Source: a virus (Duplodnaviria; Caudoviricetes). Taken from it: a stretch of 24,630 nt of DNA. Position numbers and translations under genes: made by a program. Location: IMG/VR virus record IMGVR_UViG_3300012038_000039, positions 1-24,630 of that record. One strand, written 5' to 3'. The notes under the pieces were generated by a model. It saw only the letters and a list, made by a program, of their open reading frames with translations. It had not been told where the DNA came from and searched no databases. Below, in pieces: positions 2,360 through 24,247 of this stretch (position 1 is its first letter; every line of letters starts with the position of its first letter).

Positions 2360-2869
2360 ATGCCCGCAGCCCCGATTCTGACCGGCGAACCGCAGCCCGG
2401 CATTCACACCTACTTCGCGCTCGGCGAGGCGGCGACGCCGACCGTCGTGCAGGATATTTCCGACTTCCTGACGAGCGTGGAGCCGTCCGAAGACACCGAC
2501 GAGCTCGACGCGACCACGTTTCGCAACACGTCAAAGCGCATTCTGGCCGGGTTCAGCACCATCAGCTACACGCTGACCGGCTACTACTCCGAAGAGGCGT
2601 ATGAATTCTTCGCGCCGCTGCGGAAGATGACCGGCATCTCCTACGAGTACGGGCCGGGCGGCAACGAAGACGGCAAGACGAAAATCAGCGGCCTGTGTAC
2701 CGTGTTCTCGTTTGCCGACCCGTCGGCCAGCGTCGATGCCGTCAACGGGCTGACCGTGGAGCTGCGGATCGAGACGCGCACCATCGGCGTGTTCTCGGCC
2801 GTGCTGCTCGACGAGGGCGGCGAGGCGGCGGCGGCGGGCGTGCCCGCGAAGCGCAAGTCTGCGGCATAA
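2360..2869 (+). CDS. major tail (tube) protein
   Basis: GAGGAG RBS upstream. DISDFLTSVE...DELDATTF...GF, YEYGPGG pattern of siphovirus tail tubes; position before chaperone and tape measure genes. Confidence 0.8.
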   Translation: MPAAPILTGEPQPGIHTYFALGEAATPTVVQDISDFLTSVEPSEDTDELDATTFRNTSKRILAGFSTISYTLTGYYSEEAYEFFAPLRKMTGISYEYGPGGNEDGKTKISGLCTVFSFADPSASVDAVNGLTVELRIETRTIGVFSAVLLDEGGEAAAAGVPAKRKSAA

Positions 2870-2878
2870 GAGGCGCCC

Positions 2879-3271
2879 ATGAATCTCCGTTTGCCGGTGT
2901 CGGGTTTGAACCTCAAGTTCAAAAATGGACATTTGCGGGAACTCAACGCCGATCTCGCGGCGCACGACCGCACCATCGCCGATCTCGGCGCGGACCAATG
3001 GCTGACGGCCGCGCGGCTCGTGCAGGTCGGCCGCAAGTTTGAGCAGACGATCACCGTCGAAGAGGCCGACGAGATCATCGACGCCGAAAAAGAAGGCGGC
3101 GTGGACTTCGACGAGCTGCTGGCCGCCATGGTGCGCGCGGTGCGCGGCAAGATGACTCGCCCGCTGAAGATTCACACCCTCGACGAGCTCGACGCCGAGG
3201 AGGGCGCGGCCGACGACGCGCCAAAAAAAAGCGACCTGACCCGCGTCGCGCCGATGGGACGAGTGTCATAG
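2879..3271 (+). CDS. tail assembly chaperone (lambda gpG-like)
   Basis: Lies between tail tube and tape measure genes; acidic; carries slippery CCA AAA AAA AGC near its 3' end. Confidence 0.75.
   Translation: MNLRLPVSGLNLKFKNGHLRELNADLAAHDRTIADLGADQWLTAARLVQVGRKFEQTITVEEADEIIDAEKEGGVDFDELLAAMVRAVRGKMTRPLKIHTLDELDAEEGAADDAPKKSDLTRVAPMGRVS
3223..3231 (+). other. programmed -1 ribosomal frameshift site (A AAA AAA)
   Basis: A8 run at 3223-3230 in a GC-rich gene, phased as X XXY YYZ in the chaperone frame. Confidence 0.8.
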
Positions 3272-3564
3272 ACGACCAGGAGCGCGTCGCGCTGCGGGAG
3301 CTGGGGCTGCTGCCGTGGGAGTTCGACGAGCTCGACCCGTGGCAGTTCCGCCAGCTGCTCGCCGGGCATCGCGCGCGGCAACGGGACCGCTGGACGCAAC
3401 TGGCGCAACTGGCCGCCTGGCTGCTCTCGCCGTATTCCAAACGCAAGCTGTCAGTCAAGAACTTCATGAAGTTTCCGCCCGATCCGCTCGACGCTGAGGA
3501 CGCCGACGAGCGGCCGGCCCCGCCGCGCCCACAGCGCCGCCCGCGTGTGGTGACCCGTGGCTGA
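3229..3564 (+). CDS. frameshifted C-terminal extension of the tail chaperone (gpGT-like, -1 frame)
   Basis: The -1 frame after the A8 run reads KRPDPRRADGTSVIDDQERVALRELGLLPWEFDELDPWQFRQLL...VVTRG* to TGA 3562-3564 with no early start codon. LGLxPxEF motif typical of gpT-like segments. Confidence 0.8.
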   Translation, partial: KRPDPRRADGTSVIDDQERVALRELGLLPWEFDELDPWQFRQLLAGHRARQRDRWTQLAQLAAWLLSPYSKRKLSVKNFMKFPPDPLDAEDADERPAPPRPQRRPRVVTRG

Positions 3565-6532
3565 TATCGCCACGCTGACCGTTCGGATTAACGCCGCGAC
3601 GGGCGAGCTGACCGCCGAACTCAAAGGCCTCGAGCAGTCCGTCAATAAGACCTTCTCGTCGCTGTCCACGATGTCCGTGGCCGCGGGCGTGGCGCTGGGC
3701 AATCTAGCCGTTAAAGGACTCGGTGTCGTCACGCAGTATGCGACCGACGCGGTTCGAGACGTCATTGTCCTCGGCGGAACGCTGACGGATCTCTCGGCGA
3801 AAACCGGCGTGTCCATGCGGACGCTGCAGGAATGGGGGTTTGCCGCCGAGCAAGCAGGGAGCAGTCTTGAGGCGGTCACACGGGCGAGCACAGAGCTCGG
3901 CCGCCGGGTGTTTGAAGGCTCGAAGGGCACAGGGGAGGCGCTGGCGAGCATTGGGTTGAGCATCGGGCAGATTCTGGCGCTGAACCCGGAGCAGCGGTTT
4001 GAGACGGTCGCGGCGGCGATCGCGAAGATCGAAGATCCCGCGGCCAGGGCGGCGGCCGAAACGGCCTTACTAGGCAAGGCCGGCGTGGCGTTGGATCCGG
4101 CGATTCAGAGGTTCGCCGCCCTCACCGAGCAAGCGCGAAACCTGGGCATCGCGATCTCAGACGAGACGCTGCGCGCCGCCGACGAATTCGGCGATCAGAT
4201 GGATATCCTCACGGCGCAGGGGAAGGCGCTGATTGCGGAATTCCTACAGCCGATGCTGCCGTTGATCGCGCAAGTGGCCACCGCGATGACCTCGTTTGGG
4301 AAAGATGTCCTCCCCGGCGTGCGTGACTGGATCGTCAACATCGCCAGATCGTTTATTGAATTTGATACGGGCATCCAGAAGGTCATTCGCGGGTTGGCGG
4401 AAGCCGCGCAGTGGGCGCCGAACTTTGTCGTGAATCAAGAGCAAGTGGCGGCGGCGATCGGCCGCGCGAATGCCGTGATTGCCGCCAATGAGGCGCGGCT
4501 GAAGGGGCTGGACACCCAGATCCGCATGGTGTCCAGCCATGTGACATCCGACTTCACGCCGGCAGTTGGCCGCAGCGCAGAGGAATTAGCAAGGCTGAAG
4601 GCCGAACAAGAGAAGGCCGCCGCCGCGGCGAAGAAGCACGCCGACGAACTGGCGCGACTGAGCGGTGCCGATGTCCTCGCGGGTGCGGCCAAGCTCGCCG
4701 CCAACATCAAAGAGATCGGCGGCGTCAGCAAGATCGCCTTTACCGAAGTGGAGCGCGTCCACGAGGAATTCACGAAGGCCATCCAGATCGCCGAGCAGCG
4801 GGGGCAGGTCGTGCCGCAGTGGTGGCGGGACATCGCCTTCGAGACGCGGAACGCACAGGCCGACCTGGCCGACTATCACACCGGGTTCGCCGGGCTGCTC
4901 GACGCCTTCGCGCGGGCCGACATCACCGTGCCCAAGCCGCCGCAGGGGCTCGTCGAGGGGTTCGGCGACCTGCTCAAGATCTTCCCGCAGATTGCCAAGG
5001 AGCGCGACGAGGCGCTGAAGCCGCCGAAGGATGTGGAGGACTGGAAGGATTACGGCACGCAGAGCACGCAGACGATCCAGCGCACGCTCGAGGGCGGCAG
5101 CAACATCGGCGCGGCCATCGGCGCGCAGATCGGCCAGATGATCGGCAAGGAGATCACGAAGGCCATCGTCGAGAGTATGTCGAAGAAGGCCGCCGCGCAG
5201 TGGGGCGAGGCGATCGGCGGGCTGGTGGGTATCGGCGTCACGCTCATTGGCGCGGGCTTCAGCAAGCTGTTCGGGCCGGGCGAGCACGAGAAGGTGAACG
5301 ATATGCGCGACGCCTTCATCGATGCGGCCGGCGGGCTGGCCGCGCTGAATGTGAAGGCGCATGACGCGGGGATGACGCTCGACGGCCTGCTGCAGGCGAA
5401 GTCGGTCAAGGCCTATGAGGCCGCCGTCAAGAATCTGACCAGTGCGATCGGCGCCGCGGAAAAGAAGGCGCACGATTTCGCCGCCGCGCTGCAATTGGCC
5501 GGTGGCAAGAACTCACTGCTCAGTCCAGAGCTGCTGAAAGGCCTACAAGATCTGAAACCCGGCACCGAGGGCGCCGCCGCCGCCTTCCAGTTCTTCCAGC
5601 AGCAGACGCAGCTCGCGTCGAGTGGCCTCAACGCCTTCCTGCAGAACGCCACCATCACGACGCAGGCCTCCGCGACCGCGATTACCGGCGCGCTCGGCGG
5701 CATCTACGAAGACCTCCGCGCGCAAGGGCTGTCCTCGACGGAGGCCTTCGCGCAGCTGCAACCCACGATCACCGCGCTGGCCGCGCAACTGACGGCGACC
5801 GGGCTGTCCGGCGGGGCGGCGTTCCAGGCGCTGGCCGATCAGGCCGCCGGCGCCGCCGATACCGTCGCCGGACCACTGTTCACCGCGGCGGCGGGCCTCG
5901 GCGACCTGCTCGTCGCCACGGCGAACACCGGGCGGCTCACGCAGGACATGTTTACCGGCCTCGCCGGCGAAGTGACGGCGACGTGGAAGCAAATCGAGCT
6001 CGCGGGGCGCGGCGGCACCGCCGGCATCGCGAATATGCAGAAGCCGCTGCAGGTCGTGTGGGAGCTCTGGAAGGATCAGGGCTACGCGATCGACGACACG
6101 ACCGCGGAGCTGCTGACGTTCGCGGAGAACAGCGGGCAGGTGGGCGACCAGTTCCGCAGCGACCAGGACAAGATGCAGAAGGCGGTCGAGCTGCTCATCA
6201 GCCGCATTGACCTGCTCGTGAAGACGCTGACCGAGAACTTGCCGAAGGCCGCCGCATCGGGCGCGCAGGGGCTCGAGACGGCGCTGGGGCAGATCGAGCC
6301 GCCGGTGATTGACGTTCACTTCCGCTACGTGGCCGACAACGACCTGCCCGAGGGCGGTGGGACCGGCGGCGGGGCCTCAGCCTTTGGGGCGCCGACGGCG
6401 CTGACGCCGACAAGCCTCATGGGCGCCGCCACTGTCCGCGTGGCCGTGCAGATTGACGGCGAGCGCATCGCCGAGGCCGCCGCGCGCTATAGCGGGCGCG
6501 TGCTGACGCCGTATGGCGTGGGCGTGGCCTGA
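3557..6532 (+). CDS. tail tape measure protein
   Basis: 991 aa, Ala/Gly-rich and helical. N-terminus ADIATLTVRINA; LTDLSAKTGVS..TLQEWGFAA motif; follows the chaperone pair. Confidence 0.92.
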   Translation: MADIATLTVRINAATGELTAELKGLEQSVNKTFSSLSTMSVAAGVALGNLAVKGLGVVTQYATDAVRDVIVLGGTLTDLSAKTGVSMRTLQEWGFAAEQAGSSLEAVTRASTELGRRVFEGSKGTGEALASIGLSIGQILALNPEQRFETVAAAIAKIEDPAARAAAETALLGKAGVALDPAIQRFAALTEQARNLGIAISDETLRAADEFGDQMDILTAQGKALIAEFLQPMLPLIAQVATAMTSFGKDVLPGVRDWIVNIARSFIEFDTGIQKVIRGLAEAAQWAPNFVVNQEQVAAAIGRANAVIAANEARLKGLDTQIRMVSSHVTSDFTPAVGRSAEELARLKAEQEKAAAAAKKHADELARLSGADVLAGAAKLAANIKEIGGVSKIAFTEVERVHEEFTKAIQIAEQRGQVVPQWWRDIAFETRNAQADLADYHTGFAGLLDAFARADITVPKPPQGLVEGFGDLLKIFPQIAKERDEALKPPKDVEDWKDYGTQSTQTIQRTLEGGSNIGAAIGAQIGQMIGKEITKAIVESMSKKAAAQWGEAIGGLVGIGVTLIGAGFSKLFGPGEHEKVNDMRDAFIDAAGGLAALNVKAHDAGMTLDGLLQAKSVKAYEAAVKNLTSAIGAAEKKAHDFAAALQLAGGKNSLLSPELLKGLQDLKPGTEGAAAAFQFFQQQTQLASSGLNAFLQNATITTQASATAITGALGGIYEDLRAQGLSSTEAFAQLQPTITALAAQLTATGLSGGAAFQALADQAAGAADTVAGPLFTAAAGLGDLLVATANTGRLTQDMFTGLAGEVTATWKQIELAGRGGTAGIANMQKPLQVVWELWKDQGYAIDDTTAELLTFAENSGQVGDQFRSDQDKMQKAVELLISRIDLLVKTLTENLPKAAASGAQGLETALGQIEPPVIDVHFRYVADNDLPEGGGTGGGASAFGAPTALTPTSLMGAATVRVAVQIDGERIAEAAARYSGRVLTPYGVGVA

Positions 6533-8286
6533 TGGCCGCCACGCTCGCGCGCTGGACGCCGCGGCCGGTGCCGCGCACCGTGGACGGGACCAGCCTGCTC
6601 ATCGGCGGCCGGGAAACCACCGACACCGACCTGCACGCGCAGTCGCTGCGGTGCGAACGCCTGCTCGACGCGCGCGGCAAGTTCTCCTGCCAACTCGCGG
6701 CGCCGCCGGTCGTGCCGACGGTGGATATGGACGTGCTCTTTACGCTCGAAGGCACCGCGGTGTTCGGCGGCATCGTCGTGGACCTTGCGCGGAACGGCGA
6801 CCTCTGGACGGTGACGGCCGCCGACAACCTGGCCATTTGTGACGGCCTGCTCATCAACGCCCCGTCGCCGGCCGGCACGTTGAAGGTGGTGCTCGACTGG
6901 ATGGTGGCCTACGCGCTGGGCGGCTACGGCTTCACCGTCGATGCGGCGATGACGGCGACGCCCGGTCCCGTGGTCCCGGCGCAGCTGTGGGCGATGACGT
7001 CCTTCGCCGCCGCGCTGAAGCAGTTGGGCATCCTGAGCGGCTGGTCACTGACGGTATCCCCGACGCGCGTGCTCCGCATGTATCCCGGCGGCGCGGTGCC
7101 GGCGCCCTGGGCGATCAACGAGACGACCGACACCATCCAGTCGCTGACCGCCCGGAGCTCGCGCGAGGGCCACGCGACACACGTCTGGGTCCGGTATGGC
7201 AGCGGGGCGCCGACGACGGTGACGTGGGCCGCGTGGGGCGATGGCGCGGCCGTCTCGTGGCAGTCGCCGTATTACGTGGCCACGCCGCCGGGCACGGTCA
7301 GCGTGTCGGCGGTGGTGTATCCGCTGGCGCCGTATCCGCCGACGGGCGGCTGGACGGGCTGGACGTGGGAAACGCTCGACGCCGTGGGGCGGTTGCATAT
7401 GCCGGCGGGCGCGACGCCGCTGACCGGGCTGGAATCGGCGACGGTCGTCTTCGAGGCCGCCTGGCCGTCGGTGGTGGTCGCGGTGGATGCCACCTTCCCG
7501 CTGCACACAATGGTCGTGATCGACTACCCGGATGTCTTTGAGTACACCACGGCGCAGGCGCTGGCCGATGGCGAGCTCGCGCGGCGCCAAGGGTTCCCGC
7601 AGCGGTTCACGCTCCGCACCGCGCGCGTCGGTCTGCAGCCGGGCCAGACCGCGGCGATCGATGTCCCGTCGATGGACTTGGACACCGACGCGCTGGTGAC
7701 CGGCGTGCGGCTGGTGCATACGCAGAATGTCGGGCCGACCGGCGTACCCTGGTGGGCGTTCGATGTGGAGCTCGTCGAGGCGAACGCGAGCCGCGGGAAC
7801 TGGCTCACCTTCTGGGAGCAGCTGAAGGGCGGCGCGGCCGGCGGCACGGGGTCGAGTGTGACCGGCACCATCCCGCCCGCCCCGCCGAGTGGCGGCGGCG
7901 GCGGCGACGGGGCAGGGTATGCAACGTGGCCGCTCGGCGGCGATCACGACAGCGGCAGTCCGAGCCCCACGGCGGCGACGTGGCTCCCGATTCCGAACGC
8001 CTGTTTTGCCACGGCGCCGGCGGCCTTCACGGGGCGCACCTGGACGGTGTATGCCACGGTGAAGCGGCTGCTCGGCGCCGGCACCTTTCAGCTCGCGCTG
8101 ACGAACACGGCTTCCGGCATCAACGCCGCGACGTCCGCGGTCATCACGTTTGCGACGGGGGAATTTGCGGCGGTGTCGTTTACGGCGCCGGTCGCGCCGG
8201 GCGAAACCTATCACTTGCGCGGGTTGACGAGTGACGCGGGAACGATCGTTGGCGTCACGGGCTATCTCGAGGCGGTGTCGGCGTGA
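6532..8286 (+). CDS. tail tip / baseplate hub-like protein with C-terminal beta-sandwich after a Gly/Pro linker
   Basis: TGATG-coupled to the tape measure gene. Hub-like segment FTLRTARVGLQPGQTAAIDVP; linker PPAPPSGGGGGDG. Confidence 0.65.
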   Translation: MAATLARWTPRPVPRTVDGTSLLIGGRETTDTDLHAQSLRCERLLDARGKFSCQLAAPPVVPTVDMDVLFTLEGTAVFGGIVVDLARNGDLWTVTAADNLAICDGLLINAPSPAGTLKVVLDWMVAYALGGYGFTVDAAMTATPGPVVPAQLWAMTSFAAALKQLGILSGWSLTVSPTRVLRMYPGGAVPAPWAINETTDTIQSLTARSSREGHATHVWVRYGSGAPTTVTWAAWGDGAAVSWQSPYYVATPPGTVSVSAVVYPLAPYPPTGGWTGWTWETLDAVGRLHMPAGATPLTGLESATVVFEAAWPSVVVAVDATFPLHTMVVIDYPDVFEYTTAQALADGELARRQGFPQRFTLRTARVGLQPGQTAAIDVPSMDLDTDALVTGVRLVHTQNVGPTGVPWWAFDVELVEANASRGNWLTFWEQLKGGAAGGTGSSVTGTIPPAPPSGGGGGDGAGYATWPLGGDHDSGSPSPTAATWLPIPNACFATAPAAFTGRTWTVYATVKRLLGAGTFQLALTNTASGINAATSAVITFATGEFAAVSFTAPVAPGETYHLRGLTSDAGTIVGVTGYLEAVSA

Positions 8287-10115
8287 GGCGGATCGCCTGC
8301 CTGGTGTGGGGGCTCGGGCTGGCGGCGCCGGCGGTCGCGCAGGTCACGATCGCGGATCAGATCATCGCGCGGCAGACGGTCGTGGCCGGGACAACGATCG
8401 CGAGCGCGTCGCCGCTGACGGTGGTCGGGTTGCCGGCGGCGGCGGGGGCGATTGTCCGGATCGGGGCGGGCGGGCTCGTGGGGATCGGGCCGCTGGTGGC
8501 CGGGGATGTCCCGTCCGTGTTCACGCGCCGGGACGTGGCGGAGGTGATTCCGTCCAATTGGACGTTTAGCGGGGGCCTCCTGTCCCTGACGAATGCGACG
8601 AGTAACACGATCGCGTTTCCCTCATTGGGCGGCTACGGGCCACCGACGCTGACAACGCGGAGTATCGGTACGAAGGCTACCTGGTGGGGCCGTGATGCTC
8701 CGTCGACTGAGTTTGAGTATGCGACGGGCATTGATGGCGGAACCCTCTGGGCGTCAGTGCCCGCGTCGGGCGCGCGGTTTGCGTGGTTCGCCAACGATGG
8801 CGACACGATCAACGAAACCGGGACACCGGGGGCCGATCTCGTCGCGGAGCTGACGGGCACGCGCGATTTTCTGCCGGGGATGGGCTATAGCGGGAACCTG
8901 GGGCTGTTTAATCGCAAGTGGTTGACGCTAAACGCTGCCGAGTTGTGGGTCTCGACGCTGGTCGCGCAGGAAACGATCGCGACGATTGGCGGGCGCGTGC
9001 TCGTCGGGCCGACGACGACGTTGACCCGCGATCTGGCGCCGGGCGATACCGTGATCTGGGTGAAACACAATGCCTTCCAATTGCACGTGCCGGGGGTCGA
9101 GTTAGGCTCGAAGCTCGTGCTGGAAACCTACGCCGCCGGCGTCGCGAAGTTTGAAGTCGTGGCGGTGCAGGACACGACGACGCCGGGCGCCAGCGCCGGC
9201 GAGTATGGGTACACCGTGACGCGCAACCTCGACGGATCGGGCGCGAATGCCTGGACCGCCGGGGATGCGGTGTTCGATACCGGGAAGACGGGATCGGGAT
9301 TTATCGATCTCTATGCTCTGCGCGGGCTGTCGAATGCGTCGCAGCTCGGCCCGACGATTGTCGGCAATGTCCGCACGGCCGATGCCTATAACGCCTGGTC
9401 GCCGCGCTGGGCGCTGGGCAACCTGCAAGGGCTCTACGGCTACGGCGCCACGACGTACGGCGCGGCCTTCGGGAATGCGTCCTCCACCTTCGTCGCGGTG
9501 GACGCCACCAATGGCTTCCGCGTCGTCAATGCGTCCACGACGATCGGCCAATGGGACACGGCCGGTGTGGTCACGATCGGCCCGGTCACGTCGAGCACGA
9601 CCGGCAAGATGGTCATCGACAGCGACAGCGTGGATATCTCCTATCGCGGGGCCACGCTGTTTTCGATCTACAGCTCGGGATCGAGCCTTGCGAAATTCGA
9701 TACGCCGCTGTGGACGAATAGCGGCCTGATGACGCCCTCGATCGCGTGGCTGAGCGGCAATCTCGCGCTCTCGACCTCGACGAATTTATCGGCCATCACG
9801 CTGCAACCGGGGCCGTCGGCGCCGGTGAGCGGCGCGGTGCTGCCGGGCTTTGACAGCGCCACGCCACTCGGCAGTGCGACGAAACGATGGACGAATATTC
9901 ACCTCAACCTGCCGGTCCAGAGCGGCAGTCTGACGTTGCCGCCGTCGGGCTTCCCGTACCTCGTGACGGGTGACCGAACCGATGTGACGCGGCTGGGCTA
10001 TGTCTGCGGCGTGACGGCGACGCATTCGCTGTTAGTGGGCACGGCGACGTGTGCCAGCGGGGCGATGTACATGATTTTCCAATGCGGGGTGCTGGTGACC
10101 TCCGGCTGTTATTAG
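8283..10115 (+). CDS. tail fibre / tail-tip-like protein with predicted N-terminal Sec signal peptide
   Basis: GTGA-coupled start. MRRIACLVWGLGLAAPAVA|QV. Gly/Thr/Ser-rich beta content; two PxxxxxxxLGxxxxKW/RW fibre-type motifs; four Cys in the last 38 aa. Confidence 0.65.
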   Translation: MRRIACLVWGLGLAAPAVAQVTIADQIIARQTVVAGTTIASASPLTVVGLPAAAGAIVRIGAGGLVGIGPLVAGDVPSVFTRRDVAEVIPSNWTFSGGLLSLTNATSNTIAFPSLGGYGPPTLTTRSIGTKATWWGRDAPSTEFEYATGIDGGTLWASVPASGARFAWFANDGDTINETGTPGADLVAELTGTRDFLPGMGYSGNLGLFNRKWLTLNAAELWVSTLVAQETIATIGGRVLVGPTTTLTRDLAPGDTVIWVKHNAFQLHVPGVELGSKLVLETYAAGVAKFEVVAVQDTTTPGASAGEYGYTVTRNLDGSGANAWTAGDAVFDTGKTGSGFIDLYALRGLSNASQLGPTIVGNVRTADAYNAWSPRWALGNLQGLYGYGATTYGAAFGNASSTFVAVDATNGFRVVNASTTIGQWDTAGVVTIGPVTSSTTGKMVIDSDSVDISYRGATLFSIYSSGSSLAKFDTPLWTNSGLMTPSIAWLSGNLALSTSTNLSAITLQPGPSAPVSGAVLPGFDSATPLGSATKRWTNIHLNLPVQSGSLTLPPSGFPYLVTGDRTDVTRLGYVCGVTATHSLLVGTATCASGAMYMIFQCGVLVTSGCY

Positions 10116-10128
10116 GGTGGGACATCCT

Positions 10129-10581
10129 ATGCGCTATGTTCTGGTTGCCGCGCTGCTGATCGCTGCGCCCGTCGCCGCGCAGACCTCGACGCCTGGCACG
10201 TATGTCGACCGCTGGACGCTCTCGACGGATCCGCCGTTTGTCGGCCGCATTCAGATTGCCTCGGCGGTGACCGCGGGCATCGTGCTGGAAGAATCCGCCT
10301 CGACGCCGAACCACACGCAACGCTTCGCGCTGGCGCAGCGCGTGCTGAACGAACCGCAGTTTCTGGCGATTCGCTTGGCACCGATGATTGCGGCCTCGAT
10401 TCCGGTGACGAGCACCGACCACGATAACGACCCGGCGACGCCGCCCGTCGTGGACACGACGTGGACGGATGAGCAGTTACAGAACCTCATCACGCAACGC
10501 TGGAATCTGCTGGCGTCGGCCTTCGTGCCGGTCACGGCGCCGCCGGTCACGCTGCTGGCCGCGCCGCCGGGGAAGCCATGA
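10129..10581 (+). CDS. exported hypothetical protein, possibly fibre-associated chaperone
   Basis: MRYVLVAALLIAAPVAA|QT signal peptide; helical core (FVGRIQIAS...RFALAQRVL...TDEQLQNLITQRW). An alternative GTG start exists at 10117. Confidence 0.6.
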   Translation: MRYVLVAALLIAAPVAAQTSTPGTYVDRWTLSTDPPFVGRIQIASAVTAGIVLEESASTPNHTQRFALAQRVLNEPQFLAIRLAPMIAASIPVTSTDHDNDPATPPVVDTTWTDEQLQNLITQRWNLLASAFVPVTAPPVTLLAAPPGKP

Positions 10582-10946
10582 CGCGCCTTCGCGTTGGCCT
10601 GCAGGCGGTGGCGCTGGGGGCGGTGCTCATCACACCGCTGTTCGCGCAGACGCCGCCCTCGACGTCCAGTGCCCCGCCGGGCGCGGCGTCGGCGCTGCCG
10701 GATGGTCATCGCCTGCAGGCCGAAAATCTGCGCTTGCGTGCGCAAGTGCTCGAGCTCCAACGTGCGCTCGCGCAGCTGCAACTCGAAACCGAGTCGGCCC
10801 GGCTCAACGCCGACCGGCAGGCGCTCGAGGCGACCTTCCGCGCGCTGCTGAAGCCGGCGGCTGGCCTCGTCTTCGACTGGAATGTCCTCGCCTTCACGTC
10901 CCCCACACCGGCGCCCGCGCCGGCCGCTGCTGCCTCGCAACCCTGA
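10578..10946 (+). CDS. exported or membrane-anchored coiled-coil protein (i-spanin-like candidate)
   Basis: ATGA-coupled. MTRLRVGLQAVALGAVLITPLFA|QT, then heptad-rich LQAENLRLRAQVLELQRALAQLQLE. Confidence 0.6.
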   Translation: MTRLRVGLQAVALGAVLITPLFAQTPPSTSSAPPGAASALPDGHRLQAENLRLRAQVLELQRALAQLQLETESARLNADRQALEATFRALLKPAAGLVFDWNVLAFTSPTPAPAPAAAASQP

Positions 10947-10957
10947 CGGGAGTCCCC

Positions 10958-11428
10958 ATGCGATACCTTCCGCTGACCGCGCTGATCTTCCTGGTGGGCT
11001 GTGACCCGCAAACAATTGTGACGACGACGGTCACGGCGCCGACGCCGATCACGTTCCCGACCGCGACGCCCACGGCGACCGGCAGCTGTGCGCCGACGGC
11101 GACGTGTCCGAACCCGTGCTCGCCTGGCGTGACCTGCACCGGCGGCGGTGGTGGAATCGGCGGGGATCCGTCATCGCGCCTCCCGGAAATTTTCAGCTTC
11201 GATGCCGACACGCGCCGGATCAGCAAGGGCGCCGCGGCGGTGCTGCGCTGGGAAATTGGCGACCAACGCGCGACCGTGCGGATTGACCCGAACATCGGCA
11301 GCGTGAGTCCCGTCGGCTTCCTGCTGGTGTTTCCTGTGACGACGACGACCTACACGCTGACGGCCCGCAACAATCTCGGCACCGTGCAGCGCCAGTTGAC
11401 GATCGTCGTGTTCTCCGCCGAAACCTAA
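10958..11428 (+). CDS. lipoprotein with Thr/Pro/Cys linker and C-terminal Ig-like domain
   Basis: GGGAG RBS. MRYLPLTALIFLVG|C lipobox; Ig-like segment FSFDA..ISKG.AAVLRW...VRIDPNIGSV...TTTYTLTARN. True start 10958, not 10469. Confidence 0.75.
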   Translation: MRYLPLTALIFLVGCDPQTIVTTTVTAPTPITFPTATPTATGSCAPTATCPNPCSPGVTCTGGGGGIGGDPSSRLPEIFSFDADTRRISKGAAAVLRWEIGDQRATVRIDPNIGSVSPVGFLLVFPVTTTTYTLTARNNLGTVQRQLTIVVFSAET

Positions 11429-11431
11429 GTG

Positions 11432-11608
11432 ATGCACGAGGTGCTTGCCTTGACGCTGCCCACTCCGCCCCAGCCCGACCCGCTCGAGGATCCCGACGAC
11501 GTGCCGGCCGATCGCGAGGAGGTGCCGCCGCCGGAGGATCCCGACGACGACGACGCCCGTCCGGTGCCCGAACACGCGCGCATCGTGCCGCCGCGGCGGG
11601 GTCGCTGA
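11432..11608 (+). CDS. small acidic Pro-rich hypothetical protein (58 aa)
   Basis: MHEVLALTLPTPPQPDPLEDPDDVPADREEVPPPEDPDDDDARP... fills the gap in the operon; not in the ORF track. Confidence 0.5.
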   Translation: MHEVLALTLPTPPQPDPLEDPDDVPADREEVPPPEDPDDDDARPVPEHARIVPPRRGR

Positions 11609-11609
11609 G

Positions 11610-11747
11610 ATGCCGCCCGCGGTGCGACTCGTGCTGATCGTCGTGGCCATCGTGTGCTTTGCCCTAGCGGCGGCCGGCGTGGCGAGCCGCGTGAACCTGC
11701 AGGCGCTGGGGCTGGCGCTGTGGGCGACCGCGACGCTGCTGGTGTGA
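11610..11747 (+). CDS. small two-helix membrane protein (45 aa), holin-like candidate
   Basis: MPPAVRLVLIVVAIVCFALAAAGVASRVNLQALGLALWATATLLV has two hydrophobic segments; TGATG-coupled to the next gene. Confidence 0.6.
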   Translation: MPPAVRLVLIVVAIVCFALAAAGVASRVNLQALGLALWATATLLV

Positions 11748-13282
11748 TGCACCGGCCGCAGACGCTCTCGCTGGTGGCCGACTTGGCGTGGAGGCCGCTC
11801 TTCGAGGCGGCCCGGCCGATCGTCCCGCCTCCGCGCGTGCACAAGTTCATCGACTGTGATGGCGGGAGCGATACCACGGGAACCGGCACCTACGCGAACC
11901 CCTGGAAGACGCCCTACACCTGGACGATGCAGGCGCGGCCCGGCGAGTACTGGCATCTGCGCGGGAAGGGCGATCCGGATACCGCGTCGATTTACCCGCT
12001 GGCCGACGGCACGCCGCACGACTGGATCACGTTCGGAGATTGGGACGGGGCGCCGCTGCATCTGCCCGGCCCCACCGGGCTGCAGCCGGTCGTCACGCTC
12101 GACGGGCGCCAGCGCATCTGCCTCGAGCAGCTCACCATCGACGCGACGAACTCGAGCACGATGGACGGCGGCGCGATTCGCGGGAACGGCCAGGGCTGCC
12201 AGCATATCGTGATTCGCCGGAACCACGTCCAGGTGCGGAGCGGCGCGCACGGGTGCCAGTTCTTCATCGACCCGTCGCACATCTGGATTGAGGACAACGA
12301 TCTCGACGGGCACGGCCGCGACGACGTGCGCTACGCCAACAGCGGCGACGGGATCGCCTTCGGCGGGAACGCCACGGCGTCCCAGTGCTACGCCTACCGC
12401 AACCGGATCACCGACTTCGGGCACATGGGGATCCAGGCGCTGACGCAGGTCGCCGACCGGCACAACAGCGGCATCTACAGCGGCTTTAATGCGGTCAGCT
12501 CGACGCTGGCGGGCGGCATCGCCTACCTGCGGACGGATGATTCGCTGGTGGTCGGGAACCTGATCGACGGCATCGCGACCAACGACGCGAGTCAGAGCAA
12601 CTCGAAGGAAGGGATCATCGTTAACGGCTACCGGAACGGCTACTACCTGAACCGGATCCGGGACGTCCACGGCCCGGCGCTGCTGCTGCTCGTCAACGCC
12701 TTCGGCGGCATCGGCCAGAGCTGCGTCGAGAACGACATCGCCGGGAACGCCTGCTACGGCGGCGACACCTTCCCGCTGGCGGTGACGCTGCGGACGGCCA
12801 CGCCGGATCTGCACGGGCTGTTGACGATGGCCGGCAACCGTTACCGCGGGAACGTCCACGCGCGCAACATGCGGAACGGCCAGGGCGGGTTCTACGAGGG
12901 CTGCATCTGGCAGGTCTGGGTCACGCTGGGCGCGAGCGGCTATCTGCTGGCGCCCGCGGAGTCCGAACGCTGGTGTCCCGGCGGCGTGGCGAACGTGGCC
13001 GAGCGGCGCCTGGCCGGGCTGACGCTGACGGACAACCTGTTCGACCCGACGGGCACCAGCCCGACGGCCGGCTTCCTGATGTTCACGGCCAGCGATGCCA
13101 CGCAGGCCAACGTCAATTCGACCTACCCGGCATCCGCCGACGCGGCGGCGCAATTCGGCGCGGCCGTGGTCCGTGGCAACGTGGAGGCGGATGCCGGGTT
13201 CACCGAAGAGGATCCGACGGACGCGCGGTGGCTGACGCGGCGGGCCGAGGCCGACGCGATCGCCGTCGTGGTCGGCGGCTAG
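11747..13282 (+). CDS. right-handed parallel beta-helix protein (pectin-lyase fold; tailspike/depolymerase candidate)
   Basis: FIDCDGGSDTTGTGTYANPWKT N-terminal motif; repeated Asn-ladder strands HIVIRRNHV, HIWIEDNDL, AYRNRI, LVVGNLI, VENDIAGN. Start 11747 by TGATG coupling. Confidence 0.75.
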   Translation: MHRPQTLSLVADLAWRPLFEAARPIVPPPRVHKFIDCDGGSDTTGTGTYANPWKTPYTWTMQARPGEYWHLRGKGDPDTASIYPLADGTPHDWITFGDWDGAPLHLPGPTGLQPVVTLDGRQRICLEQLTIDATNSSTMDGGAIRGNGQGCQHIVIRRNHVQVRSGAHGCQFFIDPSHIWIEDNDLDGHGRDDVRYANSGDGIAFGGNATASQCYAYRNRITDFGHMGIQALTQVADRHNSGIYSGFNAVSSTLAGGIAYLRTDDSLVVGNLIDGIATNDASQSNSKEGIIVNGYRNGYYLNRIRDVHGPALLLLVNAFGGIGQSCVENDIAGNACYGGDTFPLAVTLRTATPDLHGLLTMAGNRYRGNVHARNMRNGQGGFYEGCIWQVWVTLGASGYLLAPAESERWCPGGVANVAERRLAGLTLTDNLFDPTGTSPTAGFLMFTASDATQANVNSTYPASADAAAQFGAAVVRGNVEADAGFTEEDPTDARWLTRRAEADAIAVVVGG

Positions 13283-13300
13283 ACGAAGGGGACACTCATC

Positions 13301-13636
13301 ATGGCGCTCCCGGCGACGGTGAACATCACGGCCTACGCGGGCGACACCTGGTCGCAGCAGTTCCGGCTGAAGCTCGGGGATACGCCCGTGGACCTGACCG
13401 GCGCGACGGTGCGGTCGTGGGCGCAGCATCTGCAAGGCGCCGTCGTGGAACTGGCCGTCACGGTGCCGACGCCGACAGACGGCCTGTTCTATCTCGGCAT
13501 CGGGCCGGATGGCCTGCCCAGCGGCAGCTACACCTATGACGTGGAAGTGACGCAGGCGGGGATCGTGACGACGTGGATTCGTGGCCAGTTGGTCGTGACG
13601 GCCGACATTACGCAGCCGGCGGAGGTGACGCCATGA
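13301..13636 (+). CDS. small beta-sandwich fibre adaptor (BppU-N-like)
   Basis: GAAGGGG RBS. GDTW...PVDLTGAT...GSYTYDVEV...TWIRG motif, common directly upstream of phage fibre genes. Confidence 0.65.
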
Positions 13637-14478
13637 GCGACACGGTGATCGAAGTCATCACGGATCCACCGCCGGTCATCGAAGTCATTGAGGGCGCGGC
13701 GGGCGCGCCGGGTCCCCAAGGGCCAGCGGGACCAGCCGGACCAGCGGGCGCGGCTGGGGCCGATGGCCTGCCCGGCCCCCCGGGTGCGGATGGGGCTGAT
13801 GGCGCCGATGGCACGCCGGGCGCGGTCGGCGCGCAAGGGCCCGCCGGACCCACCGGGCCCACCGGACCCGCGGGCGCGGACGGGGCACCCGGGGCCACGG
13901 GCGCGCAAGGGGTGCCGGGCAATCCGGCCAGCGTGCCGCAGGCGGCGCTGGGCCAGGTGCTCATCTCGCAGGGCGCGGGCGTGGCGTCGGTGATGAGTGC
14001 GAACCCGGCGGTGACGGGCAGTCTGGCGATCGGCACGAACCCGGCGGCGACCGGCGCGATCCGGCTGGCGAACAATCAGGCGATCGTCGGGCGCAATGCC
14101 GCCAATACGGCCGACCAATCGCTCGTGCAGTTCGATGCGGGGAATGATCTGATTTTTGGGAGCGCCAGCTATGCCCGGCCGATCCATTTTTACAGTCTGG
14201 GCGGGCTGCATATCCTGGCGGCGGCGGGGGCCGAGTTCTACTTCGATGCCAACGGCCTGTATCCGGGCGCGAACAATACCCGCGCGATCGGGCATCCGTC
14301 CCTGCGGTTCGCCGTCGTGAATGTCGGCACGGCGATCAATCTGAAGGAAACCACGGCGCCCGCGGCGCCCGCGGCCGACTGCGTGAACCTCTGGGTGCAG
14401 GACAACGGCGCGGGCAAGACGCAGCTCATGGTGCGATTCGCCACGGGCGCCGCGATTCAACTGGCGATTGAGCCGTAG
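13633..14478 (+). CDS. collagen-like tail fibre protein
   Basis: GGAGG RBS, ATGA overlap. 26 uninterrupted Gly-X-Y triplets, then a beta-rich C-terminal domain ending [15 protein letters not shown]. Confidence 0.8.
13693..13926 (+). repeat. collagen Gly-X-Y repeat (26 triplets)
   Basis: [18 protein letters not shown]...GAQGVPGNP, counted from the translation. Confidence 0.9.
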
Positions 14479-14896: not shown

Positions 14897-15680
14897 CGGA
14901 ACCAGATTTCGTGGTGGGTTCTGGCGGATAGACCCAATCCAGCGTCCGTCCCAGAATCGCGCGTCGGACGGCCGGCGCATCCGCCTTCGCCAGCAAGTGA
15001 TCGAACAGAACCGCTAACCGCTTTTCGTTGAGGGCGACGGGCGGCGCCTTGCCGGCAGTCTTAAGGATGCCGGCGAAGCGGCGCGCGAGAAACATCACCA
15101 CGAGGAGTCGGGCATCCCCGCTCACGTCGTTGAGCTGGCTGACGCAGCGGTCCCATTCCATCAAGAGCGCATGGGTGCGGCCCCCGGTCTGCTCGGCCTC
15201 TTCATGGGCGATCCGCGCTTCGGGGGTGAAGGGGATCAGCGCCCCATCGGCGGTCAATAGCCGCGGAGGTTTCGGGCCCGGCGTGTAGCGCTTGTCAGCG
15301 GTGCGGACAAGGCTCTGCCCTTGGGTTGGGTAAGCTCGTTTCAGAAAATTCGTCATCAACCATCGTCGAACGGCATCGCGGCCTTGCGGGGGTGTCCATT
15401 CCGTACTCTTAGGTACGGAGTGAACATCCTTGTGTGGTTTGGCTTTCAGCTCCAGGTCGCGCCTTCGCAGACACCAGGCCTCGCAGTACGCCATCTCCAC
15501 GGCATCTAAGCGCGCGATGAGCGGCTCGACGATTTCACTGAGTGATAGCGGGTGACCGGCGTCATAGAGCACACCAAACGCCTTGAGAGTGATGGACATC
15601 GAACCATCACTCCCATTGCGACGGACCCAGACACGCCGGAGTCCAATCTCCGGCGTGTTGAGCGTGGGCGGTTCAGTCAT
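14886..15680 (-). CDS. hypothetical protein (264 aa)
   Basis: ATGA-coupled to the ParB-like gene (15677-15680); starts MTEPPTLNTPEIG; no family recognised. Confidence 0.65.
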   Translation of the reverse strand: MTEPPTLNTPEIGLRRVWVRRNGSDGSMSITLKAFGVLYDAGHPLSLSEIVEPLIARLDAVEMAYCEAWCLRRRDLELKAKPHKDVHSVPKSTEWTPPQGRDAVRRWLMTNFLKRAYPTQGQSLVRTADKRYTPGPKPPRLLTADGALIPFTPEARIAHEEAEQTGGRTHALLMEWDRCVSQLNDVSGDARLLVVMFLARRFAGILKTAGKAPPVALNEKRLAVLFDHLLAKADAPAVRRAILGRTLDWVYPPEPTTKSGSDEH

Positions 15681-16657
15681 GACGGTTCGGCTGTTGCCAC
15701 ATAGTCCTGCCAATACAGCGCCGACACTTTGGTTGACAGCGCATTCAACCGCTTCCACGAGGTGGCGGCTTCCGCGTTATCGGGCATCACGAAGTCCGGC
15801 GGATTTTCACTGATGGCTAACAGATCATTCACTAAGCGTAGGGCTTTCTTCGCGTGACTTTTACTCAAGGATTGCCGCGGCGGCGGGCCGGTCACGGGCC
15901 CCCACTTCGCGGCGACGGTTTGAATCGCGGCGAGCGCATCGGCGTCCGACCGTGTCTGTTCGATCTGCTTAACGAGCTCGCTGACATCTTTCGTGGAGGG
16001 CTTCGCCTGCGCGACGATTTCAACGGCGGCCCGGAAGGGTTCATCATGGGCAATGCTCGCCAGCGTGCGTTGGGTTTGCTTCGGCAGCTTGACATTGGCC
16101 AGGCCGGTGCGTTCGGCGGCTTCACGAAACGTCCGGTCCTTTCGCACGTTCCGCACATGACTGATGGAGCGCCCCAACCATCGGGCCACCGCTTCGTCAC
16201 CATGTCCGGCCTCGAGCATGATCTCGGCCGCGGCCACGATTTCGTCTTCGGTCAGCCGATCGCCCCCCATCTGATTGATGGCGGCGGCGAGCATCTTGGC
16301 TTGTCCCAGCTGCGCAAACTTCACCTTGTAGGCCGCGAAGGTCTTGCGGGCCAAGCGCTGCGCCGCGGCAATGCGGGTATTGCCGTCGACGAGGATGTTC
16401 GTCGCGCTCACGATGATGGGCGGGAAGACGGCTCCGTGCCGCATGTGGGTCGTGTATTCCTCCACCGTGGACGTGGGCGCCTGGTGGTCTTTCGCGCGGA
16501 TCTGCGTCGCGGGCTCGAGCTTCAGGCGGCTCAAGGGGAAGTTCAGATCGAGTTCGTACGGGAGGCCCCACTCGTCGAGTAAGGCTTCAATCCGCGTGTC
16601 ACGCATCGTTGCGTCCTCATCGTCGTCCAATAGGGGCGTCGCGGCAGCTTCGGGCAT
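15677..16657 (-). CDS. ParB/Srx N-terminal domain protein with HTH
   Basis: Strong RBS AGGGAGG before ATG 16657. VEEYTTHMRHGAVFPPIIV...LVDGNTRIAAA (ParB box II-like); HTH-like GDEAVARWLGRSISHVRN. Confidence 0.8.
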   Translation of the reverse strand: MPEAAATPLLDDDEDATMRDTRIEALLDEWGLPYELDLNFPLSRLKLEPATQIRAKDHQAPTSTVEEYTTHMRHGAVFPPIIVSATNILVDGNTRIAAAQRLARKTFAAYKVKFAQLGQAKMLAAAINQMGGDRLTEDEIVAAAEIMLEAGHGDEAVARWLGRSISHVRNVRKDRTFREAAERTGLANVKLPKQTQRTLASIAHDEPFRAAVEIVAQAKPSTKDVSELVKQIEQTRSDADALAAIQTVAAKWGPVTGPPPRQSLSKSHAKKALRLVNDLLAISENPPDFVMPDNAEAATSWKRLNALSTKVSALYWQDYVATAEPS

Positions 16658-16689
16658 CCTATCCCTCCCTTGTGGGTAAGCGGACGGAA

Positions 16690-16719
16690 GGTATACACCA
16701 TGCAAGGAAACCGTGTCAA
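16690..16719 (-). promoter_or_regulatory. putative sigma70 promoter for the ParB-like operon
   Basis: Minus strand TTGACA (16719-16714), 18-bp spacer, TATACC (16695-16690), 32 bp upstream of the ATG. Confidence 0.5.
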
Positions 16720-16903
16720 TGCACGATGGTGGAGCATGCATAATGAAGCGCCCGAATTATGTCCTCTAGCTCGGCCGCGTAGGAAGGCCGCTGCGCGTTT
16801 AGCGCCGCTGGTGGCAGCGAACACCGGGCGGCCGGGCGCGCGCGTCAGGGCGGGCTGTTGGGGACGCCGGCGGGTCGGGTTCTGGCTGAGTGCCGTCCGC
16901 GGC

Positions 16904-19325: not shown

Positions 19326-19487
19326 ATGACCTGGCTAGCTCTACTCGCCGCCGTCGGGCTGGCGTTTAGCTGCGGCGTGGCCGTCGGGCGCCACCAGGCC
19401 GCCGCCCGGCCGCCGCGGCTCGCGTTCTACGGCCGCATGCAAACCGGCGCCGACCTGCGCCGGCGGCTGTTCGGAGGCCCGTCATGA
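19326..19487 (+). CDS. small hypothetical protein with hydrophobic N-terminus (53 aa)
   Basis: GAGG RBS; MTWLALLAAVGLAFSCGVAVG...; ATGA-coupled to the methyltransferase. Confidence 0.55.
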   Translation: MTWLALLAAVGLAFSCGVAVGRHQAAARPPRLAFYGRMQTGADLRRRLFGGPS

Positions 19488-23795: not shown

Positions 23796-23957
23796 ATGCC
23801 GCTGCTCCACGCGCTGCTGATCGTCGTGCTGATCGTGCTGCTGCTCGGCGTGTTGCCCGGCTGGCCCTACTCCGCGACGTGGGGCTACGGCCCGAGCGGG
23901 CTGCTCGGCGTGCTGCTGATCGTGCTGCTGGTGTTGCTGCTCATGGGCAAGCTCTGA
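23796..23957 (+). CDS. DUF3309-family small membrane protein
   Basis: GAGGAG RBS; LLIVVLIVLLLGVLPGWPYSATWGYGPSGLLGVLLIVLLVLLLMG is the DUF3309 signature. Confidence 0.85.
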   Translation: MPLLHALLIVVLIVLLLGVLPGWPYSATWGYGPSGLLGVLLIVLLVLLLMGKL

Positions 23958-24247
23958 TGCAGTTCTGTGATCGTCCAATCGCTGATCTACCGCTCACGCC
24001 GCGGACGTTAAATAGGCTTTGCCAGGAAGGGATAAAAACGATTGGGCAGGTGGCGAGTTCTACTGAGCGCGAATTGTTCCGAATCAGGAATCTTGGGCGG
24101 AAAGGGATCGACGAACTGCGCGCAGCCCTGCGAGCACAAGGCGTGGATATCGAAACGAACACATCGGTAATGTGGGAGACCTGTTCGCACTGTGGCCGTT
24201 CGGGCTGGCGTCGCGCACCATGGCGTTCAGCAGACGAGGACGACTGA
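23957..24247 (+). CDS. stand-alone RNA polymerase alpha-subunit C-terminal domain protein
   Basis: RPIADLPLTPRTLNRLCQEGIKTIGQVASSTERELFRIRNLGRKGIDEL aligns by eye to RpoA CTD (RPVDDLELTVRSANCL...PNLGKKSLTEI). Confidence 0.85.
   Translation: MQFCDRPIADLPLTPRTLNRLCQEGIKTIGQVASSTERELFRIRNLGRKGIDELRAALRAQGVDIETNTSVMWETCSHCGRSGWRRAPWRSADEDD

Follow-up and report, generated by a model that had tools for sequence, protein, structure and literature searches.

A phage tail module with Sec-type leaders: predicted export of a central tail fibre and two partner proteins

The window analysed here, a stretch of 24,630 nt, comes from an uncultured, temperate phage and encodes a tail hub-type protein followed by four further genes (Table 1). 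The gene for the 610-aa protein opens with a GTG that overlaps the hub stop (GTGA), the 150-aa gene begins with an ATG 13 nt past the stop of the 610-aa gene, and the 122-aa gene overlaps the stop of the 150-aa gene (ATGA), confirming the first-pass annotation in its claim that overlaps fix the starts at 8283 and 10578. The hub, 610-aa and 122-aa proteins matched no Pfam or PHROG family, except for a sub-threshold ZapB coiled-coil match; a tRNA search found none, and no lysis gene was recognised within the window with Pfam or PHROG. A leaderless collagen fibre is encoded at 13633, and the motif P-x7-[LI]-G-x4-[KR]-[WF], which the annotation had seen in both this fibre and the 610-aa protein, indeed occurs once in the former (residue 211) and twice in the latter (residues 198 and 521), compared to 0.0004 and 0.00135 expected per shuffle, respectively, for a motif picked after the fact.

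Table 1 The hub gene and the four leader-bearing genes that follow it
Feature	Position	Strand	Remarks
Tail hub-type protein, 584 aa	6532..8286	+	Leaderless; directly 3′ of the tape measure gene
Predicted central fibre/spike, 610 aa	8283..10115	+	Sec/SPase I-type leader 1–19, mature start Gln20
Helical fibre partner, 150 aa	10129..10581	+	Leader 1–17; likely chaperone or structural partner
Coiled-coil fibre partner, 122 aa	10578..10946	+	Leader 1–23; likely folding/trimerisation chaperone
Lipoprotein, 156 aa	10958..11428	+	Cys15 lipobox; mobile accessory outside the conserved module

Four consecutive genes with export signals had been reported at this locus, and all four ORFs are present with the N-termini as quoted; comparison of their sequences with those of homologues indicates that the leaders are real. 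Leaders were called with our own n/h/c-region heuristic combined with inspection. This heuristic flags 4/4 of the quoted ORFs. Of the 27 window ORFs entered, 3 of which had wrong start coordinates, a single further one was called, encoding a hydrophobic protein of 45 aa (11610–11747); the false-call rate of the heuristic on internal pseudo-starts in fibre proteins was 99/9584 (1.0%), and it flagged 0/26 genes upstream of leader-bearing fibres. Leaders are conserved in homologues of each of the four window proteins, a check that the annotation had proposed. Leader-bearing fibres make up 35 of the 122 clusters of the 610-aa family; the fibre start overlaps the upstream stop in 26 of the first 34 such clusters, and all 34 leaders listed end in a small residue followed by Gln. 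By heuristic and inspection, the small-x-small-then-Gln pattern of a Sec/SPase I substrate with a +1 Gln is conserved at fixed starts. Four leaderless sister fibres begin exactly at the +1 Gln position of the window fibre, where the window itself has no in-frame start codon. These leaderless sisters form a supported sister clade of the window's leader-bearing clade, so host phylum alone does not account for the leader, a relation that the annotation had proposed to test. Gene finding in these GC-rich loci relied on targeted profile searches, because a naive gene caller mis-set starts there.

With 542 homologues, the 610-aa protein is a member of a large family of phage tail proteins that occurs in three forms: fused to the hub, free and leaderless, and free with a Sec-type leader. 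Its core is conserved over residues ~177–440, comprising a beta-barrel (240–369) and then a stacked beta-sheet, and its C-terminal module holds all 4 mature cysteines (575, 590, 601 and 609). In 8 clusters the core domain makes up the C-terminal portion of the hub protein, and in split forms it lies directly 3′ of the hub. This is the placement of a siphophage central fibre or spike (pb4-/gpJ-like), whose gene either comes directly after the baseplate hub that follows the tape measure gene or is joined to that hub in one reading frame. Sequence and model together lead us to predict that the protein is the central tail fibre or spike. Its barrel resembles the tail-tip proteins of phages Chi (Z 10.8, rmsd 2.4, 88 aligned) and JBD30 (Z 10.1, rmsd 2.3, 82 aligned) and lambda gpJ (8iyk_J; Z 7.7, rmsd 3.0, 80 aligned), matches that weigh less as signs of tail identity because such barrels are widespread: the capsid protein 9in6 shares the top score of Z 10.8. 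BFVD matches of the fibre model are tail fibre and tail proteins. A Foldseek search of the PDB with this model, in which residues 17–233 of the monomer are poor (mean pLDDT 67), found no structure with E ≤ 0.001, a PDB sequence search with the fibre profile returned no match and no MAT chain among its results, and fibre core plus hub found 0 matches in 50,697 cultured-phage records. A Peptidase_S74 domain occurs in 9/57 fibre family members, and 8 of these 9 are leaderless sisters; the window protein has no Pfam match to it, and in the window's clade the four-cysteine tip occupies the place of the leaderless sisters' S74 chaperone.

The hub ends in a beta-sandwich (residues ~464–580, about 7921–8271). 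This C-terminal domain is present in 29/29 split loci and 0/8 fusions, with the family sampled by way of fibre loci, and four held-out loci (L313, L318, L338 and L332) fit the same split/fused rule; leader-bearing fibres without an adjoining hub of this type occur in L035, L097, L103 and L166. We regard the domain, on sequence and modelling grounds, as a candidate docking site for the separate fibre. A predicted complex of three hub domains with three copies of fibre residues 20–100 scored a weak 0.37, compared to 0.00 for the best control, and runs of the complex gave 0.37, 0.00 and 0.84, with at least 40% of contacts in common and a partner pLDDT of at least 73. The pass mark was reached by 116/157 solved and 2/215 mismatched pairs; this support is weak because just 18/157 solved pairs, and both mismatches, are those that reached the mark with scores at 0.60 or under. 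Profile searches with the domain yielded weak matches to carbohydrate-binding modules (CBM) alone (2w3j, E 0.006), and because of this likeness the domain could bind sugar instead of the fibre.

The 150-aa protein belongs to a large phage family (1204 representatives) whose members are mostly leaderless and ~110 aa long; a leader is present on it in 4/4 leader-bearing fibre clusters and 0/4 leaderless sisters, this family too having been sampled by way of fibre loci. Its model (pLDDT 95) has a fold match to an Arthrobacter phage protein and none above Z 6.1 among solved structures, while its profile found nothing among PDB sequences or in the Atlas; one representative had no match among cultured phages, and another gave matches at E 1–3. 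Compared directly, its profile and the sisters' gene matched only weakly (probability 9%, E 0.0036). A wider profile matched that gene at E 1e-15 to 1e-19, but this profile was built from a search for which those sisters had served as seeds; three sister-like rows were taken out of it and at least two stayed in. A homologue of the 122-aa protein lies just 3′ of the fibre in 31/97 clusters with a closed fibre gene, and by the heuristic its leader state agrees with that of the fibre in 30/31 (23 with both leaders, 7 with neither), the discordant case being a leader that the heuristic missed; an Atlas search with this protein returned solely unnamed viral clusters under 0.9. Two held-out loci also agree with co-export of fibre and partners. 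The Fisher values overstate this co-variation, because only 2 pairs are independent by phylogeny; both of them agree (p 0.5 by sign test). Two large, so far unnamed phage families would thereby be assigned to fibre biogenesis.

The 156-aa protein combines a lipobox (LVG before Cys), a Thr/Pro/Cys-rich linker and an Ig-like C-terminal domain, with PHROG 2155/9770 matching residues 76–153. Its lipobox Cys is invariant in 15/15 homologues, as expected of a bacterial lipoprotein. Homologues occupy other positions in 12 close loci, and the four closest sisters have none in their loci; close homologues usually lie in the packaging/head region of phages, with no fibre homologue in the fetched loci. 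The first-pass annotation had proposed a four-gene tail-module system, which we reject, since homologues of the lipoprotein lie elsewhere and are missing beside the four closest sisters' fibres. Three genes form the module and the fourth stands outside it; as judged from these comparisons, the 156-aa lipoprotein is an independent, mobile envelope accessory.

An even-cysteine bias has been described as a mark of exported proteins (PMC7678975). Cysteine counts in mature leader-bearing fibres are even in 28, odd in 2 and zero in 1, compared to 30 even, 36 odd and 6 zero in leaderless fibres (Fisher test, 4e-6), and the hubs of leader-bearing phages, taken as controls, are balanced at 14 even and 13 odd. 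The mature leader-bearing chains thus carry the bias expected of a disulfide-bonded exported protein, and the even counts therefore suggest disulfide formation outside the cytoplasm. This parity does not depend on the start call.

By the textbook route, the parts of tailed phages fold and assemble in the cytoplasm. We consider it likely that in this phage the fibre and its two helpers instead mature in the periplasm, in a host that is probably one of the Vicinamibacterales, and attach to particles at lysis. The leaders on the fibre, 150-aa and 122-aa proteins would send all three to the periplasm, where Sec/SPase I cleavage before Gln may be followed by pyroglutamate formation, VKOR/DsbA-type oxidation would allow a disulfide-bonded fibre to form, and trimer assembly would be helped by the two small partners. 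The new N-terminus of the fibre could then dock onto the extra C-terminal domain of the tail hub, a cytoplasmic protein, when the two compartments mingle at lysis, a timing step with no named agent in the window because no lysis gene was recognised there. Comparison of homologous sequences establishes the leaders, their placement ahead of an otherwise homologous N-terminus, their joint presence on three genes, the even-cysteine bias, the hub fusion and the split-specific domain. VKOR is present in 5/5 and glutaminyl cyclase in 4/5 genomes of the order carrying relatives; the integrase identified no host. Counting against this explanation is locus L080, with a fused, leaderless fibre and then a leader-bearing gene of another family. 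The earlier proposal of export thus stands for the fibre and two partners, periplasmic maturation included, and falls for the fourth gene. Somewhat less firmly, we lean towards a two-compartment build in which a fibreless cytoplasmic particle and a periplasmic, pyroglutamate-capped, disulfide-bonded fibre are united at lysis as the last step, with several switches between fused, free and exported forms. On the same build, L097 and L103, each with a leader-bearing fibre in a small, satellite-like element and no tail genes nearby, may provide a fibre of their own for the tail of a helper.

The exported trio might alternatively block the receptor as a decoy in the periplasm or at the cell surface, in superinfection exclusion or to protect progeny from debris, while the particle uses another adhesin, e.g. 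the collagen fibre at 13633. T5 offers a precedent in an exported lipoprotein that blocks its receptor (PMC9586334), as does the Bdellovibrio surface in its signal-peptide-bearing phage-like fibres (PMC10769870), and both the leaderless collagen fibre in the window and the isolated fibres of L097 and L103 would suit such a role. We nevertheless judge it unlikely: the fibre gene stands where fused forms carry the C-terminal half of the hub itself, the hub retains its split-specific domain exactly like the leaderless sisters, a weak scan found no promoter-like site between the exported genes and the tail operon, and the collagen fibre has no tblastn match in the loci of the four closest sisters. 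Joining at lysis and a lysogen surface complex had both been put forward in the annotation; we favour the former, as a proposal, because the hub keeps that split-specific domain.

The other alternatives concern the leaders themselves or part of the module. Leaders kept as uncleaved inner-membrane anchors, holding the fibre module or nascent tail tips until late cleavage or lysis, would suit the long hydrophobic leaders of L002, L116 and L117, but seem quite improbable given that nearly all family members have short h-regions and A-x-A ends before Gln, that the leaderless sisters start at that Gln and that even mature cysteine counts call for an oxidising compartment. A hydrophobic N-terminus and coiled coil adjoining a lipoprotein is the layout of a spanin pair, which the 122-aa and 156-aa genes match in a window with no other recognised lysis gene. 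That these two proteins are the inner and outer spanins of an ordinary lysis cassette is nonetheless highly improbable, and we rejected it: 7 homologues of the 122-aa protein lack any hydrophobic N-terminus, at odds with an obligatory membrane anchor, and the 156-aa protein contains an Ig-like domain, its gene showing no linkage with the 122-aa family across 12 close loci, at odds with conserved linkage. Hardly credible is an artefact in which translation really starts further downstream, the apparent leaders being due to mis-called starts or to the Ala-rich N-termini that a GC-rich genome encodes. The heuristic is indeed much looser on GC-rich host DNA (87/440 long ORFs flagged, membrane proteins included), and of the 34 calls it made when applied to 149 members representing the 150-aa family, 7 look false by eye; mis-called starts were rejected on the overlap-fixed starts, the missing in-frame start at +1, the constant n/h/c anatomy across divergent sequences and a cysteine parity independent of the start call.

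The family offers a natural experiment, in which one tail module occurs in fused, free and exported forms, while two partner genes, cysteine pairing and a hub domain change to match. Should the fibre be added at lysis, there would be an added assembly route that opens disulfide chemistry to host-recognition parts, infectivity would be conditional on lysis, and a small domain–peptide pair would be defined that is testable in vitro without host culture. Were the trio a decoy, a core tail gene would have undergone an unusual conversion to envelope function.

Sec-exported fibres of tailed phages are not described in the literature searched (mostly open papers, main texts), and the closest known systems resemble the window in part. 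The closest functional model for the 156-aa protein is the T5 superinfection-exclusion lipoprotein Llp, likewise a small phage envelope lipoprotein (PMC9586334); the two are likened by function, and the window protein differs in its Ig-like domain. Prophage proteins of Porphyromonas gingivalis that follow the Q-rule (PMC5837995) are also phage gene products with SPase I leaders exposing Gln (PMC10367356). Unlike the window genes, these five genes, of unassigned function, may modify the outer membrane and belong to Bacteroidota hosts, with neither tail fibres nor a co-varying module in the consulted part of that source (PMC10367356). The MAT fibres of Bdellovibrio resemble the window family as phage-tail-fibre-like trimers in which a signal peptide precedes a conserved N-terminal region, of ~130 aa in the MAT family, and S74 may be present or absent, but are chromosomal predator adhesins on the cell surface, outside a phage tail operon and, in the sections drawn on here, with no hub partner (PMC10769870). 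In the branched receptor-binding systems of Klebsiella phages (a T4gp10-like domain plus a docking peptide), a domain appears when a second fibre attaches by its N-terminus (PMC6872550, PMC13352976); unlike there, the window domain sits at the hub C-terminus, its candidate partner is predicted to be exported, and its profile search yielded weak CBM matches and no T4gp10-like one. Lambda gpJ represents the one-piece form, with a related barrel fold in the Chi, JBD30 and lambda tips, and the window fibre differs from its T5 and lambda counterparts in having no sequence match to any PDB chain. The T5 tail tip likewise has separate hub (pb3) and central fibre (pb4) genes, and its fibre, a beta-prism spike, is joined via hub C-terminal beta-domains, much as proposed for the window (PMC10038345). 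No export step is described for T5 in the portions of that source used here (PMC10038345), whereas the window combines leaders and paired cysteines on the fibre with a leaderless hub.

All four ORFs behind the hub gene, with their leaders and stop/start overlaps, proved to be as the first-pass annotation had described, and the motif it saw shared by the 610-aa fibre (two copies) and the collagen fibre (one copy) stood far above shuffles. Leaders were called by our own n/h/c-region heuristic, which is loose on host DNA, combined with visual inspection; among the 27 window ORFs entered, the heuristic flagged the four genes plus one 45-aa hydrophobic ORF, and among internal pseudo-starts it fired on 99/9584. 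The fibre family comprises 542 homologues with a common region at residues ~177–440 of the 610-aa protein. Four scans gave 193 loci, of which 7 lacked a start and 20 were dropped (5′-open or frameshifted), and grouping the 166 kept at 90% identity left 122 clusters (five loci had their starts placed manually, the heuristic was overruled at locus L140, and the call at L043 was later corrected). Leader conservation was a check proposed beforehand: the leader is present in 35/122 clusters and absent in 87/122, and in the first 34 leader-bearing clusters it always ends in a small residue followed by Gln, with the start overlapping the upstream stop in 26. In a core-domain tree, the window fibre and three leader-bearing relatives form the sister group of four free leaderless proteins, and both groups nest in a 13-member clade also holding five hub-fibre fusions (supports 98, 95, 95 and 98 in one tree; 97 in another). 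Leader changes on the full tree, counted without direction (gain or loss) and with L043 in its pre-correction state, number at minimum 12, of which well-supported branches force 5.

Exported proteins are reported to be biased towards even numbers of cysteines (PMC7678975). Cysteine counts were even in 28, odd in 2 and none in 1 of the mature leader-bearing fibres, versus 30, 36 and 6 of the leaderless ones; hubs of the same leader-bearing phages, taken as control, divided 14 even to 13 odd. Cysteine content of leader-bearing fibres was about double that of leaderless ones (median 0.68% versus 0.33%), and p values for cysteines are optimistic since the rows are related. Paired cysteines occupy different modules in different family members; the window fibre's four mature cysteines all lie within its last 36 residues, where the leaderless sisters carry the Peptidase_S74 intramolecular chaperone domain. 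Export with disulfide formation is very probable.

The fibre's monomer model was confident only at about residues 240–470 and the C-terminus (mean pLDDT 67). Residues 240–369 matched tail-tip proteins of Chi (Z 10.8), JBD30 (10.1) and lambda (gpJ, 7.7), with a capsid protein also at 10.8, and BFVD matches included tail fibres and tail proteins. From these folds and the hub fusions we infer that the 610-aa protein would be that half of the tail tip which forms the central fibre or spike, placed behind the hub much as pb4 lies behind pb3 in T5 (PMC10038345). Searches with fibre core and hub found no cultured relatives in the phage collection.

A ~115-aa beta-sandwich, weakly resembling carbohydrate-binding modules, ends the hub at 25 leader-bearing and 4 leaderless loci with separate hub and fibre genes and at 0/8 fusions; it also occurs in L043, L051, L135 and L183, outside this adjacency count, and L035, L097, L103 and L166 have no adjoining hub of this type. 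New loci L313, L318, L338 and L332 obeyed the same split/fused rule (L323, frameshifted, was excluded). Exported fibres would thus join the particle at lysis, docking on this domain, a reading we consider probable and one parallel to the domain-peptide docking described in Klebsiella phages (PMC6872550). Modelling of the hub-fibre complex, as had been suggested, gave a predicted 3+3 assembly of the hub domain with fibre residues 20–100 scoring 0.37 against 0.00 for the best control (runs 0.37, 0.00 and 0.84; shared contacts at least 40%, partner pLDDT at least 73). The score mark was reached by 116/157 solved and 2/215 mismatched pairs, but at 0.60 or under by only 18/157 solved pairs and both mismatches, so this support is weak.

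That the exported proteins instead form an envelope decoy, the surface or receptor-blocking option raised at the outset, appears unlikely beside particle joining. Leaderless sisters start at the very position at which the mature chain of the window fibre does, and retention of the leaders as membrane anchors is very improbable. Still less credible are a spanin pair and an artefact of leader calling. Pfam and PHROG searches of 30 window ORFs yielded no endolysin, holin or spanin.

A 122-aa homologue lies 3′ of the fibre in 31/97 clusters with a closed fibre gene; both proteins carry leaders in 23, neither in 7, and L042 has a short leader missed by the heuristic (Fisher 3e-6), with only two independent contrasts, both concordant (p 0.5). 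Leader states also agreed in held-out L313 and L338. The 150-aa family (1204 representatives, mostly ~110 aa and leaderless) had 34 of its best 149 flagged, 27 of these true by eye. Collecting these homologues, as proposed, placed the leader in all four leader-bearing clusters and in none of the four sisters, a partly circular comparison, the profile's search having been seeded with the sisters; a leaderless copy sits elsewhere in L080. At fold level the 150-aa protein matched one from an Arthrobacter phage (TM 0.59, E 0.025), and in phage JasmineDragon a very weak match (E 1) comes directly after the final minor tail gene. Counting any family (L043 pre-correction), the next gene bears a leader at 18/28 leader-bearing versus 3/60 leaderless loci, and the upstream gene at 0/26 leader-bearing loci. 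Since helper leaders track the client's compartment, both proteins may most simply be read as chaperones or structural partners of the fibre. Accessory-protein export appears common in these phages; L080 and L248 carry more leader-bearing genes 3′ of the tail module, in L080 even behind a hub-fused fibre. Some 150-aa family members have long Pro-rich or other N-terminal extensions (P0157, P0184, P0210, P0241) or tandem domains (P0171, P0191, P0202, P0247).

The fourth gene, in contrast, dropped out of the proposed export module. Its Cys15 is invariant (15/15 homologues), yet the lipoprotein lies 5′ of the portal in 9/12 close loci (L210 and L215 have it, by eye, between the terminase genes; one other behind a different tail gene, two too short for placement). 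None of the 12 showed the fibre or its partners within flanks up to 10 kb, and the lipoprotein is absent from the four closest sisters' loci over the same flanks. It is an accessory; an exclusion role like that of T5 Llp (PMC9586334) is a guess.

Coordinates of features in the window and in related loci
Sequence	Position	Strand	Feature	Remarks
Window	3557-6532		Connector, tail tube, tape measure genes	After portal fragment; Pfam, PHROG
Window	6532-8286	+	584-aa hub	Next after tape measure gene; leader genes directly 3′
Window	8283-10115	+	610-aa fibre	Leader 1-19
Window	10129-10581	+	150-aa protein
Window	10578-10946	+	122-aa protein
Window	10958-11428	+	156-aa lipoprotein
Window	11610-11747		45-aa hydrophobic ORF	Possible membrane role
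Window	11747-13282		511-aa leaderless protein	9 cysteines; right-handed beta-helix look, pectate-lyase-like by eye; no family match
Window	13301		phrog_1084/3304-type small protein	Between 511-aa protein and collagen fibre
Window	13633		Collagen fibre
Window	15677-16741	-	ParB-like protein
Window	17181		Integrase	Pfam, PHROG
Window	19484-20542		MT-A70 methyltransferase	N-terminal extension fused
Window	about 23796-23957		53-aa hydrophobic ORF	Possible membrane role
Window	23957-24247		96-aa protein, RNA polymerase alpha C-terminal domain	Pfam E 5e-14; just 5′ of HNH gene; possible transcription regulator
L106	9281-11181		Hub-fused fibre remnant	Frameshifted
L103	about 4900-14150		Small element
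L097	about 2500-11100		Small element
L080	12218 onward		Leader-bearing genes
L248	13500-20000		Leader-bearing genes

The window is an entire virus contig of 24,630 nt, and by its gene order, which starts with a portal fragment and leads through the tail genes to the integrase and the HNH gene, it reads as a temperate, long-tailed phage whose terminase/capsid stretch is absent from the contig. The missing capsid gene is explained by the compact phages L210–L220 (portal about 70% identical to the window's), ordered by eye as small terminase, lipoprotein, large terminase, protease-capsid fusion and portal. L219 has a tail of different type. Together with its small neighbour and the collagen fibre, the 511-aa protein appears to make up a second appendage module, this one cytoplasmic, which did not turn up in the loci of the closest sisters. 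Lysozyme-like genes were seen by eye 3′ of the module in L135 and L139. L103, within a 4.0-Mb chromosome contig, and L097 contain a leader-bearing fibre beside genes that by eye resemble those of primases/helicases and recombinases, with no hub or tail genes near the fibre; they are possibly satellites bringing their own exported fibre.

The window phage's host is probably a member of the Vicinamibacterales. Leader-bearing forms came from assemblies whose titles name Vicinamibacterales or Acidobacteriota, with single cases in Phycisphaerales, Lysobacterales and Gemmatimonadaceae bins. Family matches occurred in 9/401 genomes of the order of genome G001 (counting unpublished G288, which enters no other result); in G001, G014 and G078 the hub domain is followed by the fibre and then by the 122-aa homologue (G078 fibre leader not called), and the L106 remnant lies on a chromosome of the same order. 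Five such genomes encode VKOR (5/5) and glutaminyl cyclase (4/5); among these genomes' own proteins, leaders ending in A-x-A followed by Q are numerous by eye.

A literature search, with supplements (including virion proteomes) outside its scope, returned nothing on exported fibres of tailed phages. The nearest published systems are the Bdellovibrio MAT fibres (PMC10769870) and the Q-rule genes of P. gingivalis phages, of unknown function (PMC10367356). Our locus contributes matched leaderless and fused controls, co-varying partners and a split-specific hub domain.
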